A stretch of 64,000 nucleotides of DNA from a virus (IMGVR_UViG_3300017989_000071:32001-96000); one strand, 5' to 3'; positions 24,680 to 44,091 are shown, numbered from the stretch's first letter. Notes: generated by a model not told the origin, from the letters alone. Program-made: numbers and translations.

Positions 24680-24947
24680 CGTGTGTGTCTCCTTCTACCC
24701 GAACAATCGGAACGGACGGGGGAGCATCAATCGAATACTTAACCCGCGCACCGCTTATCCGGTAGAACGTAATCCGTACAGGACCGAGCTCGATGACCGA
24801 TCCTTGAAAAAGCGTCAGGCGCATCCCGGCATAATCGACAACGACCCTCCGGTTCTCCGCGCTCAAAAACTTCAGGTAGTGCCTCCCGACCCGAACAGCG
24901 CATCCGGTCCTCCCCGTCAACCCAAGCCTACCCCGTCCGTCGTTCAT
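24654..24947 (-). CDS. CsrA-like protein (apparently tandem)
   Basis: GSVIELGPVRITFYRISGARVKYSIDAPPSVPIVRVE resembles the CsrA fold; start at ATGA overlap. Confidence 0.5.
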   Translation of the reverse strand: MNDGRGRLGLTGRTGCAVRVGRHYLKFLSAENRRVVVDYAGMRLTLFQGSVIELGPVRITFYRISGARVKYSIDAPPSVPIVRVEGDTHDEETITVG

Positions 24948-34037: not shown

Positions 34038-34957
34038 GCCGCTTCCTCCTGATCGTCTTCGTCTTCCTCTTCGGCGGACTGAGCCGCGAGGATCAGGTCC
34101 GCCGCCTTCTGCGCCTGAGCCGCCGCGTAGACCAGCAGCTTCCGGTCGTCCTTCAACTTCGCGAGCCAATTCTTGATGTAGGCCGCGCTGTTGTCGATCA
34201 CCACGTTCTCGATCCCGCAGAACCCGCACAGGCAGCTCGCGCCCAACTCGGCGACCAGCTCCTCCTGAGAGTAATTGTTGCCGCCGAAACCGTCGTGCTC
34301 GACCAAGCTCTTCCGGTTGAGACGATCCTTGTGGCCGGTCGAATGGGAGAGCTCGTGAAACAGGGTGGAGTAGAACGCCTCGGAAGTCTTGAAGTGCTCC
34401 GGCTTCGGGCAGCCGATGTAGTCGGTACCCGCGATATAAAAAGCGTGGCTCCCGCCGAACTTGATCTCCGGCTTCTCTTCCCAGCCGTCCACCACCCGAC
34501 CGCACACCTCGATAGGGGTGAAGTCCGCGCTCGGCTTCGCCGCCTCGGGAATCCGGTCTTCCAGACCGTCGCACTGCTCGACGTTGAACACGGTGTAGTA
34601 GCGCAGCAGGGGAATCTTGTCCACAATCGGCTCCCCCTTCTCGTTGGTCTGGCCGGTCTCTTTTTCGAGAATGCGCCAGAACACGACCGGGGTACCGCGC
34701 TCGCCCTTGCGAACCTGACCGCCAAGGGTCTTGGCCTGCTTGTAGGTCACCCACCACGGCGTCGCGTAACCCGAACCCAGCAGCAACCAGACGTTGATGC
34801 CGCGATACGGCTTCTTGCTCACGAGATTGCGGTGGAAACCGCCGCCGCCCGGAACCGACCACGGCTTCTGCCACGGCACCACACCCTGCTCCAGCAGCGC
34901 GATAATCCGATCCGTCACGATCTCGTATACGTCTTTTTTGGATTTCGTCTTAGCCAT
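34034..34957 (-). CDS. ardC: ArdC-like antirestriction protein (ssDNA-binding plus zincin domains)
   Basis: VTDRIIALLEQGVVPWQKPW, YRGINV, YYSTLFHELSHSTGH, YSQEELVAELG, SAAYIKNWL. Confidence 0.92.
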   Translation of the reverse strand: MAKTKSKKDVYEIVTDRIIALLEQGVVPWQKPWSVPGGGGFHRNLVSKKPYRGINVWLLLGSGYATPWWVTYKQAKTLGGQVRKGERGTPVVFWRILEKETGQTNEKGEPIVDKIPLLRYYTVFNVEQCDGLEDRIPEAAKPSADFTPIEVCGRVVDGWEEKPEIKFGGSHAFYIAGTDYIGCPKPEHFKTSEAFYSTLFHELSHSTGHKDRLNRKSLVEHDGFGGNNYSQEELVAELGASCLCGFCGIENVVIDNSAAYIKNWLAKLKDDRKLLVYAAAQAQKAADLILAAQSAEEEDEDDQEEAA

Positions 34958-34992
34958 TTTATTCTCCTCGTTCGTTTGTCAGTCTCAATCGT

Positions 34993-35141: not shown

Positions 35142-36470
35142 CTATTCTGCCTCGCCCTCGTCCTTGCGCGTCGCATCTTCGAGAATCGAGGCCCGTTTGT
35201 AATCGGAGCGCGTATACACGCGGTACTGGCTCTCTGCGCGACGGAACTTGTCAACCCAGATGTATTCTTTATTTACTGTAAGAATTATGTCGGCCTTGTT
35301 TGTCTTCTGCGAACTGTTGGCGACGTTGAACTGGCTGAGCTGCACCTTCCTCGGATTTCCGTACAAGGTCTTGCGGCTGATCTGACTCGGAGCGATCACG
35401 ACCGCCTTGACCTCCTTCGCCAAGTCCATCAAGGAATCGTAAATCTCCCCCATCGTCGAATACATCTGCTCCCCGGTCCCGCCGCGAAGCTGATCGGGAT
35501 AGTCCACGACAACCATCGAAGGGGAGACATTGTACCGGGCCATCGCCGCCGTCACGTGAGATCGTATCTGCCCGAAGCGCGTCTTCCCCGGCGGAAACTC
35601 CTTGACCAATATCTGCTTCGACCCCAGACCCATCTCCTTGAACCGCTGCTCGTAGAGGGCAGACCCCTTCACGATCTCGTGCATCGCCACCCCCGACAAT
35701 TTCGAGGCATAACGCAGCAGCACATCGTGCTCGTTCAGATCGCCAATCGTGTAATGGAAGACCACCCCGTTACGCCGTGCCTCGAAAGCCGCGAGGTTCA
35801 CGGCCAGCATCGACTTCCCGCCACCGCTGAACCCGAGGATCACGACCAGCTCGCCCTTACCGAATCCTCCGTAGGATCGCTCGTTCAATGTGGGAAACGG
35901 AGTCAATACCCGGCCATCCGGGTTGTAGGAAGTCTGCCGCAGAATCTCCGGAAGGTCGGCCCCCACCTCGGACATCCGCGTCCCGATATTCGCCACGTCG
36001 TCCCCGACCCGACTCGCCGTCTGCAACCATTCGAGATAATCCGAAGCGTGGCTCCGCTCCTCGGGGGGCAGCATCAGCTCTTCGGCAATCCGGGCGACCG
36101 CCTCCCTCTCGGCGCAGTCCTTGGCGAACTGGATAACCTGCGTGCGGATATAGACTTCGTCGGTCAGGTCCGCTTTCGTGTAAGCGTAGTCGATCTCCTT
36201 GATCGCCCCCTCGATACTCTCGTTCGGCAACCCGTGCTGCCTTGCCCAACTCTCCAGCGCGACAACCATGCTGTCCCGCGTCGGAACCTGCCCGTGCTCG
36301 TCGTAGTGGTTGAGCGCGATACGAGCAAGGGGGACCAGCAGATCGTGCGCAAAATAGGCCGAGTCGATTGCATCGCGAAAGTGGACGAGAAACATCGGAT
36401 CGCGGACGATCAGGGCAAATATCTTGCGCTGGAATCCGAGACCGAACGGGTATTTTCCATGCCCCTCCAT
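35142..36470 (-). CDS. DnaB-like replicative helicase
   Basis: GELVVILGFSGGGKS, MVVVDYPD, APSQ, ADIILTVN; start re-called at MEGHGK. Confidence 0.87.
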   Translation of the reverse strand: MEGHGKYPFGLGFQRKIFALIVRDPMFLVHFRDAIDSAYFAHDLLVPLARIALNHYDEHGQVPTRDSMVVALESWARQHGLPNESIEGAIKEIDYAYTKADLTDEVYIRTQVIQFAKDCAEREAVARIAEELMLPPEERSHASDYLEWLQTASRVGDDVANIGTRMSEVGADLPEILRQTSYNPDGRVLTPFPTLNERSYGGFGKGELVVILGFSGGGKSMLAVNLAAFEARRNGVVFHYTIGDLNEHDVLLRYASKLSGVAMHEIVKGSALYEQRFKEMGLGSKQILVKEFPPGKTRFGQIRSHVTAAMARYNVSPSMVVVDYPDQLRGGTGEQMYSTMGEIYDSLMDLAKEVKAVVIAPSQISRKTLYGNPRKVQLSQFNVANSSQKTNKADIILTVNKEYIWVDKFRRAESQYRVYTRSDYKRASILEDATRKDEGEAE

Positions 36471-36754
36471 CACCGGGGAACGAACTCGTCGCCAACCTGC
36501 GCGGCGTAGTAGTCCCGCCACGCCCGAATCTCAAGGCGATTCGAGGGGTGGGAAAGAAGACGCCGATAAGCCAGCCGGTCTAACTGAAATCCGACCGCTT
36601 CCTCCAGCTCGGCAACGGCCTCGTTGATGCCTCCCTCCTCATCGGGTACGAACTCCCCCGCCAGAGAACAATCGACCCGAATGGACTCGAACTCTCCGAT
36701 ATTGAGGGTCACCCCGGAAGACACACTGATCCTGTCGATGTTTACTTTGGGCAT
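36470..36754 (-). CDS. hypothetical protein
   Basis: GVTLNIGEFESIRVDC; TGATG coupling to helicase. Confidence 0.6.
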   Translation of the reverse strand: MPKVNIDRISVSSGVTLNIGEFESIRVDCSLAGEFVPDEEGGINEAVAELEEAVGFQLDRLAYRRLLSHPSNRLEIRAWRDYYAAQVGDEFVPR

Positions 36755-36897: not shown

Positions 36898-36930
36898 GTG
36901 GATTCTCCTCTTCCTTCGATTGACCCGCCG

Positions 36931-37812
36931 CTAGGCTCCCACGCCCGGCAGGTTGAGAGGTTGAGGGAGACGGAAGCCAGCCGCATGACGGTGACCCCCG
37001 CCCCCATAACCTTTGGCGACCTCGGACACGTCCATGCCCCGGTCGTTACTCCTGAGTGAATACAGGTAGTCCCCCTCGCGTGTCTGAAACCAGACAACCG
37101 CAAAGGGGCGATCCTCGGCCAACCTGTTACCGACCTCCGACATGTGGATCGAAGCGCAGCAGGTGGGCACAACCGCAGTCCCCGCCCTTCCATTCCCGCG
37201 CAAAGGGAACTCGACATCCCTTGCGTTTTCGACTGCTTGATCGACGATCTTGTTCCGGTATCGCAGAAGAAGTTTCCCGCGCTCGATCAGGTCTTCGAGG
37301 CCGTTGTTCATCATGTTCGTGGACAACTCCTCCCAGACTCCAAGCTCACGCTCGGTCACCCAGATCAGCGCGTTTACCGCCTCGCTGTCGGGCATCTCCC
37401 ACCTCCAGAGATCGCGATCCTCGACGTAATCGACGATATAGGGCCGTGGCGTATCGGGATTGAAGTAATCCCACGCCAGCCCGCAGCCGGATCGGTTCAT
37501 GTCGAACGTACAGAAGGGCAAACCCTCACAATTCGCCCTCGCCGTCTTGTGGTGATCGAAGACCAGAAGCCCGGCGGCTTCCTCCTGCATCCGAAGCAGA
37601 CTCTCGCGGGGATAGCTGAAGTCGAAGATCAGGACAAACTTCCCGGCCAGATTTTGCGGCGGCCCCTCGCCGTACTTCGCGAAGATCACTTCGTAGGGGA
37701 TTCCGGTTTCTCGCAGATGCCGATGTGCGACCCACGCCGCCGTGAACCCGTCAGCGCAATTCGCGTGAGAGATCACCAGCACCTCCCTTGCGTTGTCCGG
37801 CAGCTGAAACAT
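36931..37812 (-). CDS. DHH/DHHA1 phosphoesterase
   Basis: HANCADG, FDFS, FDHHKT, GGGGHRHAAGF. Confidence 0.85.
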   Translation of the reverse strand: MFQLPDNAREVLVISHANCADGFTAAWVAHRHLRETGIPYEVIFAKYGEGPPQNLAGKFVLIFDFSYPRESLLRMQEEAAGLLVFDHHKTARANCEGLPFCTFDMNRSGCGLAWDYFNPDTPRPYIVDYVEDRDLWRWEMPDSEAVNALIWVTERELGVWEELSTNMMNNGLEDLIERGKLLLRYRNKIVDQAVENARDVEFPLRGNGRAGTAVVPTCCASIHMSEVGNRLAEDRPFAVVWFQTREGDYLYSLRSNDRGMDVSEVAKGYGGGGHRHAAGFRLPQPLNLPGVGA

Positions 37813-37829
37813 GTAGATCACACTCCTTT

Positions 37830-38137
37830 CGTTTAATAGGGGTCCGTTCACGGTTCTCTCAGCCCCACGGACCAACAAGGCTATCGCCTCCGTGTAGGCG
37901 AAACTCAGATCGTTTTAATGCGGGCCTCTCACCCGCTCAGTCATCTTGGCCTGTTCGCTGGTGGTTGTCCTTTCGGATCGGTATCCCAGCAGGGGGCAAT
38001 ACCCGGCGGTGACTCGCCATCAGTAGGATTGGCTACCCACCCATCCTTATCGTTATGCGGGCCTTCCACCCGCCCGTGCCGTGACTACCGGCCTTTGGCG
38101 GCCCCACTGTTAGGGGGCATGAATCGCTGACGCCTTA
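37830..38137 (-). ncRNA. candidate structured RNA of about 300 nt (twin T-loop-like hairpins)
   Basis: ORF-free leader downstream of promoter 38144-38172; GCGGGUGGAAGGCCCGC and GCGGGUGAGAGGCCCGC; several further stems. Confidence 0.6.
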
Positions 38138-38143
38138 CGTAAT

Positions 38144-38172
38144 AGCATACATACACCGTAGTACCTTGTCAA
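38144..38172 (-). promoter_or_regulatory. sigma70-type promoter, shared class
   Basis: TTGACA-AGGTACTACGGTGTATG-TATGCT. Confidence 0.72.
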
Positions 38173-38432
38173 CCCTGCCGCCCGTGCCGCTTCAGCAAGG
38201 CAGTCGCCCGCGCCACGAAGCACTCGTTCCTCGGCTGGCAATTATGGGTCTGACAACACCCGTGGTGATCGTGGTGGTCGCACGGACCCTGCACCCGAAC
38301 GACATCTTCGAGGATGTCCAGAGCGAGATTCAGCTCTCGGGTCGCATCCATCGCTCGACGATTCTCGGGGTGGACACAGGATTCCATGATCGCCCGCTCC
38401 TCCTTCTCTTCCCATATTGGCAGCTGCTTCAT
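38169..38432 (-). CDS. His/Cys metal-binding hypothetical protein
   Basis: CDHHDHHGCCQTHNC; start at ATGA overlap. Confidence 0.55.
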   Translation of the reverse strand: MKQLPIWEEKEERAIMESCVHPENRRAMDATRELNLALDILEDVVRVQGPCDHHDHHGCCQTHNCQPRNECFVARATALLKRHGRQG

Positions 38433-39064
38433 TTGGCACCCCGCTTCCACCACCGCTTCGGTAAGGGCGGATCGCTCGGCAGCGACTGGAGGGAAACCAC
38501 GGACAGGCTGTGGAACACCGCGTCCTCCACCGCAACGACCTCCTGATACGGTTTCCGGAAAATCCGCTCGGTGAACCACCGCTTGATCCTGATCCACCGG
38601 CTATCGACCCGCTCGCTCTGCCGCATCCCGCAGGACAGGGACAGGGCGAACTTCGAGGAGGACTGCGAGATCGTCACCGGCTCTCCGTTGACCTCCTCGA
38701 CCGTCGGCGGCTTCACGCTGTTCCACAGGGCGTCGCCGCCCGGCGTGCGCTCCACGTCGATCACCGCCTCGATACCCTTCTCCGTCACCACCAGCTCGGA
38801 GACCATCCCCGCCTTCGGCCACGGCTTCTCCCGCTGGCGGAACTCGACCCAGAGCTTTCCCTCCTCGATCTTCTCGGTCAGGCTGGGTTCGGAGACCATC
38901 TTTTCCATCGCCTCGGGCGTCAACCCACCGTTCACCGCTGGGAAAGCCAGATGTCCCAACGGCATGATGCAGGAAGTCAGCAAACGGCGACCGTCCTCGC
39001 TAGCGTCCACCCGGAACACCTTCCCCGCCGTCGGATCACGTCTCAGTGTTTTCGGGAACTTCAT
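38429..39064 (-). CDS. hypothetical protein
   Basis: MKFPKTLRRD start with AAGGAG SD. Confidence 0.55.
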   Translation of the reverse strand: MKFPKTLRRDPTAGKVFRVDASEDGRRLLTSCIMPLGHLAFPAVNGGLTPEAMEKMVSEPSLTEKIEEGKLWVEFRQREKPWPKAGMVSELVVTEKGIEAVIDVERTPGGDALWNSVKPPTVEEVNGEPVTISQSSSKFALSLSCGMRQSERVDSRWIRIKRWFTERIFRKPYQEVVAVEDAVFHSLSVVSLQSLPSDPPLPKRWWKRGAK

Positions 39065-39074
39065 CCTCTTCTCC

Positions 39075-39443
39075 TTACTTGTTGAACCAAACCACATGTG
39101 TCCATTCTCCCTTCGTCAACCACAGATCAGACGGGGCGAAGTGTACCGAAGACATCTCGCTCTCCGTAGCATACCTCCCACAGCCGTCATCGTCCGTAAA
39201 GGCTCCAAACTCGACCGCCTGCTCAAACTCCTCAATGGTCATGTGAACACCGCAGTCTGGCAACGGCTCCATCAACAAATCGACACGAAACATCTCCGGA
39301 TAGCGCACACGCATAACAGCCTCACGTAGAGCGTACTCACCGACAAACTCTTCGACTCGACGTTCATACTTCCCGATAAAGCTGCCAGTCAGAATCGACC
39401 GCGCTCCTTGACTCAATTCACCGTCTTTCATTGTATCCTCCAC
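39075..39443 (-). CDS. hypothetical protein
   Basis: TIEEFEQAVEFGAFTDDDGCGRYAT. Confidence 0.55.
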   Translation of the reverse strand: MEDTMKDGELSQGARSILTGSFIGKYERRVEEFVGEYALREAVMRVRYPEMFRVDLLMEPLPDCGVHMTIEEFEQAVEFGAFTDDDGCGRYATESEMSSVHFAPSDLWLTKGEWTHVVWFNK

Positions 39444-42720: not shown

Positions 42721-44091
42721 TCAGGCCACCTCGACGGCCTTGAACTTGCAGCGGTTCACCACCGTCTGCTTCAGACCCTTGTACTCGCCGTGCGCCTTGA
42801 CGGTCCCTGTCAGGATCACCTTCGTACCCTTGGGGGTGTCGTCCGGCGCACAGCCCGTCTTCCAGACCAGCACGTTTCCGTCCTCGGTCACGTAATTGTG
42901 GACGTAGAGCTCGCCGTAGGCGGTATCGAACGGACCGGACACGCGGTCGATGGTCACCTCCCACGACTCCCGCTTTCCCACCTCGCCGATATGCTCGGAG
43001 TGGGCCTTCTTCTCTTCCCACTCGGCCCGACGAACGCGGCTGAGGTAGGCACCGACCGCGCTCACCGCCAGACCCACCAGATTCCGGGGAATCAGGCTCA
43101 GGTTCGACACCACGGTCAGATTGTACTCGTAATCGTTCTCGGTCTCCGGGTCGATGCCCTCAACCCACTCCAGAACCTTCGCCGCCAGCTCACGGTCCTC
43201 GTCGCGGACCGGGGCGAAGGTGGAGACGTTAGCGGCCAGACGATTGATCTCTTCGTTCCACTCGTTGACTGACTCCTTCAGGGCATCAAACGTCTCGGGC
43301 TTAACGGCATTGACATTGTTCCACACGTCCACGATAGCCCAACGACGATTCGCGATTTTTTTGATGGCCGGGAGATAGGTCTTCTCGTTGAACTCCAGTA
43401 GGGAGAGGGTGTGGTTGCGGGTCGTATCGACATTGCGGTTGTCGAACTCCCACGCCGTCCGGGCGCGATCCAGATTGAAGTAGCCGCGCTGCTCACGAAC
43501 CGAAGCAGCAGCAAAAGTCAAAACCTCCTCGAAGGTTCCAACGTAGTCCGCTTCTCGTTTGATGCGGCCACTGCCAAGAGCATAGCTCTCGTCGTCTTCA
43601 AGGCTTTCGGAGAGGGACCAGACTACCTCGGCCCACTTCGCGGCCTTGTGCGCATTGGCATCGCCGGTATAATCCTGCAAACATGTCGATCCGACTTGCT
43701 TCCGCTCACCATCCGAACCTTCAAGGATGAACGTGGCTTTGCGGCTCCGCTTCAGGTTGCAATGCTCGCAGCGTTCGGGGGTTTTGCGGTAGGGGCGGAT
43801 GTCGCCAGCGTTCGCACCGCTGATAAAAACCGCATCATCCACCACCCGGACCGATCCGATCACCGTCCAGTCGCCCAGCGGGGCGAGATCGGCGGTGACA
43901 GTTACGGCGTACAAACAAACCTCGTGCCGGAAACCGTCTTCATCTTCCACGATTTCGATAAGGGAATCACCGACTTCGTAACCCACAGGAGCAAAATTAT
44001 ACCTCACGGAACGGCGGTTGATGGCGTCGATCTTCTTCCTGAAACCGGGTAGGTTCCGGGAATCGATTTTGTAGTCTTTCGTGATTTTCAT
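42721..44091 (-). CDS. early protein with Zn-binding motif and C-terminal OB-fold
   Basis: CEHC...QVGSTCL; HIGEVGKRE...GNVLVWKT...LTGTVKAHGEYKGLKQTVVNRCK. Confidence 0.7.
   Translation of the reverse strand: MKITKDYKIDSRNLPGFRKKIDAINRRSVRYNFAPVGYEVGDSLIEIVEDEDGFRHEVCLYAVTVTADLAPLGDWTVIGSVRVVDDAVFISGANAGDIRPYRKTPERCEHCNLKRSRKATFILEGSDGERKQVGSTCLQDYTGDANAHKAAKWAEVVWSLSESLEDDESYALGSGRIKREADYVGTFEEVLTFAAASVREQRGYFNLDRARTAWEFDNRNVDTTRNHTLSLLEFNEKTYLPAIKKIANRRWAIVDVWNNVNAVKPETFDALKESVNEWNEEINRLAANVSTFAPVRDEDRELAAKVLEWVEGIDPETENDYEYNLTVVSNLSLIPRNLVGLAVSAVGAYLSRVRRAEWEEKKAHSEHIGEVGKRESWEVTIDRVSGPFDTAYGELYVHNYVTEDGNVLVWKTGCAPDDTPKGTKVILTGTVKAHGEYKGLKQTVVNRCKFKAVEVA

Follow-up and report, generated by a model that had tools for sequence, protein, structure and literature searches.

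The nutL and nutR sites of phage lambda, each composed of boxA and a boxB hairpin, and the putL and putR sites of phage HK022 are phage antitermination RNA sites. BoxA is located on the 5′ side of the hairpin, the loop of boxB is a GNRA-like pentaloop (5 nt), and lambda possesses one such site per operon. Furthermore, the gene 43 operator of phages T4 and RB69 and the RegA sites are translational operators of phage replication genes, which overlap or abut the Shine-Dalgarno sequence (SD). Among RNA structural motifs, the T-loop is a five-nucleotide turn with a pair between positions 1 and 5, mostly of the U-A trans Watson-Crick/Hoogsteen type, and recurs as a module in riboswitches (PMC6158498). 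[quoted passage not shown]

Here, we analysed a 64-kb stretch (the window, from whose first letter all coordinates are counted) of a 117,644-bp virus record from IMG/VR (~91% complete, 58.9% GC), which represents an uncultured, large phage from marine sediment. Nearly all genes of this phage are carried on the minus strand, and a crude gene call yields a coding share of the genome of ~90%. A previous sequence-only reading had described a duplicated module, the quoted motifs of which lie on the minus strand, in the gap upstream of a gene encoding a DHH phosphoesterase, and had interpreted this stretch as an ornate, riboswitch-like or standalone RNA. In our preferred interpretation, to which we assign a probability of about 0.4, the stretch is an mRNA leader acting in cis, in which two hairpins would be recognised at the RNA level and control replication genes (DHH, helicase). 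The region comprises the following features:

38169-38432, minus strand: upstream gene, an 87-aa Cys/His-rich ORF (...CDHHDHHGCCQTHNC...)
38144-38172, minus strand: sigma-70-type promoter TTGACA-AGGTACTACGGTGTATG-TATGCT with a 17-nt spacer, a member of a promoter family with a GTACT spacer
37813-38137, minus strand: untranslated leader of ~325 nt, reaching from the inferred transcription start site (TSS) to the last base ahead of the DHH start codon
37810-37829, minus strand: SD AAAGGAG (37829-37823) and ATG (37812-37810) of the DHH gene
36931-37812, minus strand: DHH/DHHA1 phosphoesterase gene, 293 aa (phrog_4771, E 2e-75; Pfam DHHA1 above cut-off)

Downstream of the DHH gene, the same strand encodes a 94-aa ORF followed by a DnaB-like helicase (35142-36521), and an SF2 helicase is also found among these replication-gene neighbours. 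The 87-aa ORF directly upstream of the promoter is possibly metal-binding, as judged from its Cys and His residues; its only PHROG match is weak (phrog_28967, unknown function, E 0.005). A 222-aa ORF (38429-39097) ends in a stop codon that overlaps the start codon of this 87-aa ORF, and neither of these two upstream genes has relatives in IMG/VR.

The leader contains a pair of near-identical units, which is its sole clearly non-random feature:

38049-38073, minus strand: module A, GCGGG-UGGAAGG-CCCGC (5-bp stem, 7-nt T-loop-compatible loop) followed by the tail AUAACGAU
37909-37936, minus strand: module B, GCGGG-UGAGAGG-CCCGC followed by the tail AUUAAAACGAU

The pattern GCGGGUG(GA/AG)AGGCCCGCAU occurs exactly at 38073-38055 and 37936-37918, in line with the duplication that had been claimed, and the starts of the two modules are 137 nt apart, with module B downstream. 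The copies are identical at 17 of 19 positions with both differences at the centre of the dyad, and the identity runs on through a tail AU(N0-3)AACGAU given one 3-nt indel (score 35 versus a null maximum of 28). Conservation of the module is one-sided, with the 3′ tail kept and the 5′ flank not: read from the sequence, just two of the eight positions upstream of the two stems agree. The module pattern has no match in 100 dinucleotide shuffles of the 64-kb window, and modules A and B are its only copies in the entire 117,644-bp genome. A descriptor scan for 5-bp stems closed by a UGNRANN loop returned three instances in 117.6 kb (both strands), two of which are those in the leader. Relative to the TSS, the modules are positioned at +64 and +201, corresponding to ~220 and ~80 nt upstream of the SD. 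Two further sequences resembling degenerate module copies, near 38008 and 37862, do not exceed the null range in score, and a 68-nt periodicity of module copies was rejected as not significant.

With lambda nut and HK022 put, the modules share an organisation as near-identical units of a hairpin plus a linear tail in promoter-proximal, untranslated RNA of an early or middle phage transcript, as well as a GC-rich 5-bp stem and a purine-rich loop. In contrast to lambda nut, however, the leader modules contain a 7-nt loop, the conserved tail is located 3′ of the hairpin and two units are present in one leader; furthermore, the phage has no identified N-like protein or downstream terminator needing read-through. 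Like the gene 43 operator of T4/RB69 and the RegA sites, the modules represent small hairpins in the leader of a replication gene that could potentially be bound by a protein to limit synthesis, but they are two in number and lie ~80 and ~220 nt upstream of the SD.

In our preferred interpretation, an mRNA would start at the promoter at 38172, run through the long leader into the DHH gene and probably continue into the DnaB-like helicase gene behind it. In vivo, each unit would fold into a hairpin with a GC-rich stem of 5 bp and a purine-rich loop of 7 nt, followed by a single-stranded AU..AACGAU tail, and the two units would serve as paired recognition sites acting at the RNA level. They may function as operators for a phage or host RNA-binding protein, or as docking elements folding the leader; either way, they would set the expression level of the downstream replication genes once the promoter fires. 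If the hairpins are real RNA operators, they would provide a simple, testable example of an uncultured large phage metering its replication enzymes, and a T-loop-type hairpin plus tail would constitute a new recognition module. This interpretation is favoured by the uniqueness of the module in 117.6 kb and, as described below, by a real promoter, the lack of a terminator between leader and gene, an outlier leader length, the absence of a coding signal and ensemble support for both hairpins.

The promoter proposed for the leader was examined locally and across the genome. A local scan detected one sigma-70-like site versus ~0.8 expected by chance in 3 kb, which is weak evidence on its own. Genome-wide, 15 sigma-70-like matches (at least 10 of 12 positions) exist, every one of them on the minus strand; the plus strand has none. 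Most of the 15 combine a perfect TTGACA with a 17-nt spacer. At least nine of the 15, including the promoter at 38172, have in common a conserved spacer starting with nnGTACT, giving the family pattern TTGACA-(a/t)cGTACTCGAA...-TATAAT with a spacing of 17; the promoters at 38172 and 13342 additionally share the 12-mer GTACTACGGTGT. The sites are listed here by the first base of the -35 box:

4617, 13342, 33738, 35021, 38172, 44151, 45432, 46935 and 47661, minus strand: promoters of the GTACT-spacer family
21012, 21362, 31792, 47779, 48761 and 76362, minus strand: further sigma-70-like sites

Ten of the 15 matches fall between 31.8 and 48.8 kb of the window, and several are preceded by canonical terminators consisting of a hairpin and a U-tract. 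Conservation of the GTACT spacer points to an extra factor or a phage-specific promoter class. Because this spacer is conserved among paralogous promoters, the promoter at 38172, whose -35 box shares bases with the stop codon of the 87-aa gene, is credible, with a TSS near 38137. The latter coincides with the start coordinate given in the sequence-only reading, whose claim that the leader has its own promoter agrees with the common spacer motif and with the confinement of all matches to the coding strand. As a by-product, the promoter family with its conserved spacer yields a transcription map for the phage genome.

The other family promoters have leaders of mostly ~25-45 nt, and for most promoters of the phage the SD is found at +12 to +18 with the start codon following 25-30 nt after the TSS, whereas the first SD and ATG behind the promoter at 38172 are found at +309. 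The ~325-nt leader is thus an outlier in length for a ~90%-coding genome. No intrinsic terminator was found in the gap, although the phage possesses canonical hairpin-plus-U-tract terminators before other promoters, and the most suitable interpretation of the RNA is therefore that of a leader and not of a separate gene. A standalone RNA is unsupported, with nothing ending transcription ahead of the DHH start codon.

The gap from 38168 to 37813 on the minus strand lacks a coding signal by both codon-position GC content and PHROG searches. Genuine genes of the phage exhibit GC1/2/3 values of ~0.61/0.41/0.75, whereas codon-position GC is flat (0.47-0.69) in the three ORFs within the gap (42-74 aa) and in a 43-aa ORF at its 5′ edge. 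At the stop codon of the 87-aa gene (38169), the frame-specific GC3 signal breaks off; it resumes near the DHH start, by ~37880 at a resolution of 120 nt. The three internal ORFs yielded no family match in PHROG, in agreement with the ORF-free stretch that had been proposed. Within 37915-37944 and 37941-38069 (minus strand), both modules can be read in one frame as R-V-(E/R)-G-P-H; module B is situated inside a 9-codon ORF (MTERVRGPH*), the AUG of which overlaps (AUGA) the stop codon of a 42-codon, GUG-started ORF beginning within module A. This common reading is probably a coincidence because codon-position GC is flat, and a small protein or uORF explanation of the modules was dropped on the same grounds.

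The 19-mers of the two units could alternatively be operators at the DNA level, with GCGGG/CCCGC arms around a 7-bp spacer that would be bound by a dimeric DNA-binding protein. Two such operators 137 bp apart on the same helix face might mediate looping, form a roadblock downstream of the promoter or belong to a replication origin within the replication module. Both units are dyads that differ from each other only at two central positions, which also fits a DNA operator, and the 137-bp spacing corresponds to ~13 helical turns (~13 x 10.5 bp). The replication-gene neighbours (DHH, DnaB-like helicase and SF2 helicase) would also suit a DNA element, as would an exact 12-mer, CGGCACGGGCGG, present on the minus strand just upstream of the -35 box (38178-38189) and again overlapping the 5′ arm of module A (38070-38081). 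However, ~2% of shuffled versions of the 800-nt region contain an exact 12-mer repeat of some kind, and CGGCACGGGCGG is absent from the other promoters of the phage. Positions +64 and +201 are unusual for operators, there are just two copies and no iteron array, and the conserved tail occurs on one side only, an asymmetry that is more in keeping with a strand-specific RNA element than with a symmetric DNA site. We regard DNA operators as rather unlikely.

An iteron-type origin was rejected, as only two repeats exist, the GC content of the gap is 0.55-0.60 (minimum of 0.44 per 50 nt), and neither a DnaA box nor a GC-skew inflection was detected. Within the genome, GC content is lowest (0.33-0.38 in 100 nt) at ~34,900-34,990 and ~44,050-44,090 of the window. 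Both spots are situated in intergenic gaps that contain consensus promoters, and one follows immediately after the DnaB-like gene. By composition, an origin or unwinding element would be more plausible at these spots than in the leader gap.

Ensemble pair probabilities were computed for every stem listed in the sequence-only reading. Both module hairpins are favoured in the ensemble, with pair probabilities of 1.0 for module B and 0.58 for module A, but the module A hairpin is absent from the minimum-free-energy fold of the full leader. The following additional hairpins are predicted:

38101-38118, minus strand: GCCCC-CUAACAGU-GGGGC, pair probability 0.83
38005-38018, minus strand: GGCG-AGUCAC-CGCC, the loop of which contains one of two AGUCA copies, pair probability 0.8
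37968-37977, minus strand: UCC-GAAA-GGA, pair probability 0.96
37957-37990, minus strand: GCUGG/CCAGC enclosing UCC-GAAA-GGA, pair probability 0.51
37884-37901, minus strand: UCGCCU-ACACGG-AGGCGA, pair probability 0.8

All of the complementarities that had been named are thus present and several are favoured; AGGAU/AUCCU reaches a pair probability of 0.4, whereas the values are 0.01 for GGUAU/AUACC and at most 0.03 for the proposed AGUCA/UGACU pseudoknot. Apart from the modules, the named stems are no more than chance gives. Against dinucleotide shuffles, the folding energy of the 312-nt leader has a z of -1.45 (-0.10 for the opposite strand), and the 211-nt core comprising both modules and the stretch between them has a z of -0.94. 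Compared with 753 equal-length windows of the genome after regression on GC, the leader is average (z = +0.03, rank 370 of 753). This average folding energy, together with the missing module A hairpin in the minimum-free-energy fold, also counts against recognition hairpins acting in the RNA. Because the fold is as stable as that of an average stretch of the genome, the list of stems is not evidence for an ornate RNA, and the label of an ornate, riboswitch-like RNA is not yet justified. Plausible stems in a 59%-GC sequence combined with the lack of an Rfam match do not amount to such evidence, and the chief value of the present analysis is in this respect negative.

Searches against Rfam 15 gave no match at gathering scores in the whole 64-kb window and, with permissive filters, no match at E<=10 in 37600-38400, including the FMN, cobalamin and tRNA models. 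ARAGORN identified no tRNA or tmRNA gene in the window. The statement that the leader belongs to no known family accordingly stands up to the Rfam search that had been suggested. The leader thus matches neither the FMN nor the cobalamin covariance model, and a tRNA, tmRNA or tRNA-like identity is supported by neither ARAGORN nor Rfam.

The loops of the modules start with UGGAA and UGAGA, and with U1 and A5 in both copies they show the T-loop pattern at the sequence level. Since the T-loop motif is defined by three-dimensional criteria, these loops can be called no more than T-loop-compatible. The modules resemble the T-loop hairpins of the tRNA T-arm and of FMN and cobalamin riboswitches in their 5-bp stem closed by G-C and in a 7-nt loop with U1, G2, a purine at position 4 and A5, followed in both modules by two trailing bases. 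The occurrence of two copies in one RNA is shared with the pseudo-symmetric FMN aptamer and with class-II cobalamin riboswitches, which contain two T-loops. They differ from the tRNA T-loop at loop positions 2-3, which are G-G and G-A in the modules and U(psi)-C in tRNA, and from T-loop hairpins in general in that no partner loop or intercalating base can be assigned to them.

A novel ligand-sensing riboswitch or ornate RNA with pseudo-symmetric twin T-loop hairpins, perhaps sensing a nucleotide related to the DHH substrate, was the idea put forward by the sequence-only reading. The fit of the loops (UGGAA-GG and UGAGA-GG) to the T-loop pattern is compatible with it, as T-loops are recurrent in riboswitches (PMC6158498), and the leader is long, promoter-driven, untranslated and claimed by no known family. 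However, the folding energy provides no excess structure, two of the stems in the original model (GGUAU/AUACC and AGUCA/UGACU) have pair probabilities of at most 0.03, and an expression platform is lacking, with neither a terminator nor an evident SD-sequestering helix. Around the SD, the minimum-free-energy fold contains weak AU-rich pairing only. In addition, no homolog and thus no conserved aptamer was found, and 12 related phage DHH genes are not preceded by a comparable leader. On balance, we consider a riboswitch improbable. The link to the DHH substrate has no comparative (synteny) support and is speculation. Still less probable is the bolder proposal that this leader is the first representative of a hitherto unrecognised class of structured phage RNA, in which two T-loop hairpins and a pseudo-symmetric fold would form a small-molecule or protein sensor gating the replication module, and which would be an orphan only because close relatives are unsequenced.

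The leader has no blastn match among INPHARED phages and PLSDB plasmids, and no homologs were identified in INPHARED, PLSDB, IMG/VR, JGI metagenome contigs or GTDB genomes. Consequently, neither covariation nor another sign of selection on pairing is available for the two hairpins, which weakens the RNA-recognition reading. Viral contigs (IMG/VR) were scanned with five pattern designs (among them module plus ACGAT, twin module, 11-mer plus module, and a stem-free twin pattern), and JGI metagenome contigs and 185,579 GTDB species genomes were scanned for the module with a Y-R second pair. The matches are attributable to chance and mostly located in coding DNA, plus a few unrelated non-coding elements; many of them fall, in antisense orientation, in a recurring gene that we take to be acyl-CoA-dehydrogenase-like. 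None of the local alignments of matches to the leader is longer than the pattern itself. The module hairpin returned 27 metagenome and 15 genome matches, most of them in coding sequence and within a factor of two of a rough chance estimate (~15 and ~9, respectively).

The DHH family is large, with >7,000 matches in a search of 5.8 billion proteins. As the nearest non-self protein has 51% identity, no close relative of the phage is on record; DHH relatives in cultured phages reach at most ~35% identity. Two of the non-self proteins, with 51% and 49% identity, are encoded on contigs of 8.5 and 115.9 kb, respectively. In 12 IMG/VR loci with DHH relatives (31-46% identity), the region upstream is a short gap or coding sequence without twin T-loop hairpins. 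Five public DNA runs from four studies contain the stretch, and no RNA run is listed among the public runs containing it. Contigs from four sediment/seawater metagenome runs (three studies) are 100% identical over 36900-38700 and thus show no population variation, an identity that covers the flanking genes as well as the gap.

These results bear on the possibility that the gap is a functionless spacer, for instance the remnant of a lost gene, which by chance carries a short, duplicated GC-rich hairpin and through which, as an inert leader, the promoter drives DHH expression. The element is an orphan that is not conserved anywhere searched, its structure is average, its upstream genes are orphans too, and the number of matches in metagenomes and genomes indicates that the hairpin sequence is common by chance in GC-rich DNA. 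Nevertheless, a spacer of this length is unexpected in a ~90%-coding genome whose other family leaders are mostly ~25-45 nt long, and a near-identical 25-28-nt unit between unlike flanks is not the pattern of a recent neutral duplication. The identity of the metagenome copies across the gap likewise argues against a spacer, though the flanking genes are equally identical. We judge an inert spacer to be rather unlikely, on a par with DNA operators.

The phage encodes one ORF of potential relevance to CsrA-type control:

24693-24806, minus strand: CsrA-like ORF in an open frame of 117 aa (PF02599, 26.1 bits, E 1e-6; Pfam cut-off of 27)

In such a scenario, A-N-GGA sites in the leader, one of which overlaps the SD, would be bound by the CsrA-like protein of the phage or by host CsrA, or would act as a sponge. 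The leader resembles CsrA/RsmA-regulated leaders in its length and in containing several A-N-GGA motifs including one in the SD; A-N-GGA occurs five times versus 1.8 expected and AAGGA three times versus 0.6 expected (SD included). However, the match of the ORF is just under the Pfam cut-off of 27 bits, and GGA in total is not enriched (7 versus 9.4 expected). The enrichment is marginal given the number of ideas tested. Moreover, the twin hairpins are not GGA-loop sites and module B is devoid of any GGA, which leaves the hairpins unexplained. CsrA-type control is very unlikely to account for this leader. A CRISPR-repeat mimic was dismissed because the 15 genome and 27 metagenome loci are each single matches outside any array and the 137-nt spacing is unlike a spacer length. 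Similarly, a twin-hairpin sRNA directed against leaders or SDs was discarded: none of 129 RBS windows contains a loop heptamer or its complement, and for an anti-leader sRNA there is neither a sigma-70-like match of at least 10/12 on the plus strand nor a terminator.

The pattern scans also retrieved non-coding elements in other contigs. A ~860-nt region without an ORF of at least 70 aa is present at L053:2553-3411 (plus strand) and also in L032, in a metagenome contig with nearly no Pfam-recognisable genes. One copy of the module hairpin is found in it, preceded, as in L042, by AGGGGCGG. The 11-mer CGGGUAUUGCC occurs 66 nt upstream of this copy and, in the phage window, 69 nt upstream of module B. 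The L053 element has no further similarity to the phage leader and belongs to no Rfam family, and Rfam 15 gave nothing relevant on this contig or on L014, L015 and L022.

A non-coding, tRNA-like element is located at L015:1219-1352 (plus strand) in viral/metagenome contigs, with identical sequences in L041 and L058; L022 carries the same element on its minus strand. It is recognised by neither ARAGORN nor Rfam. Its parts are an acceptor-like stem of 8 bp (CAAGGUGG/CCACCUUG), a D-arm of the Leu type (GCGGAAUAGGUAGACGC) and GCAAGG-UGCAAAU-CCUUGC as the T-arm. The place of the anticodon arm is taken by a hairpin (GUGGGUGGAAGGCCCAC) and a long AUGACGAU/AUCGUCAU hairpin. Finally, a 28-kb viral contig contains two copies of CCGGGGAAWUCUUGUGGUGAGAGGCCCCGGACC ~130 nt apart in non-coding sequence (L030:761-913, minus strand), which represent a different twin hairpin with a 6-bp stem and an 18-nt loop.
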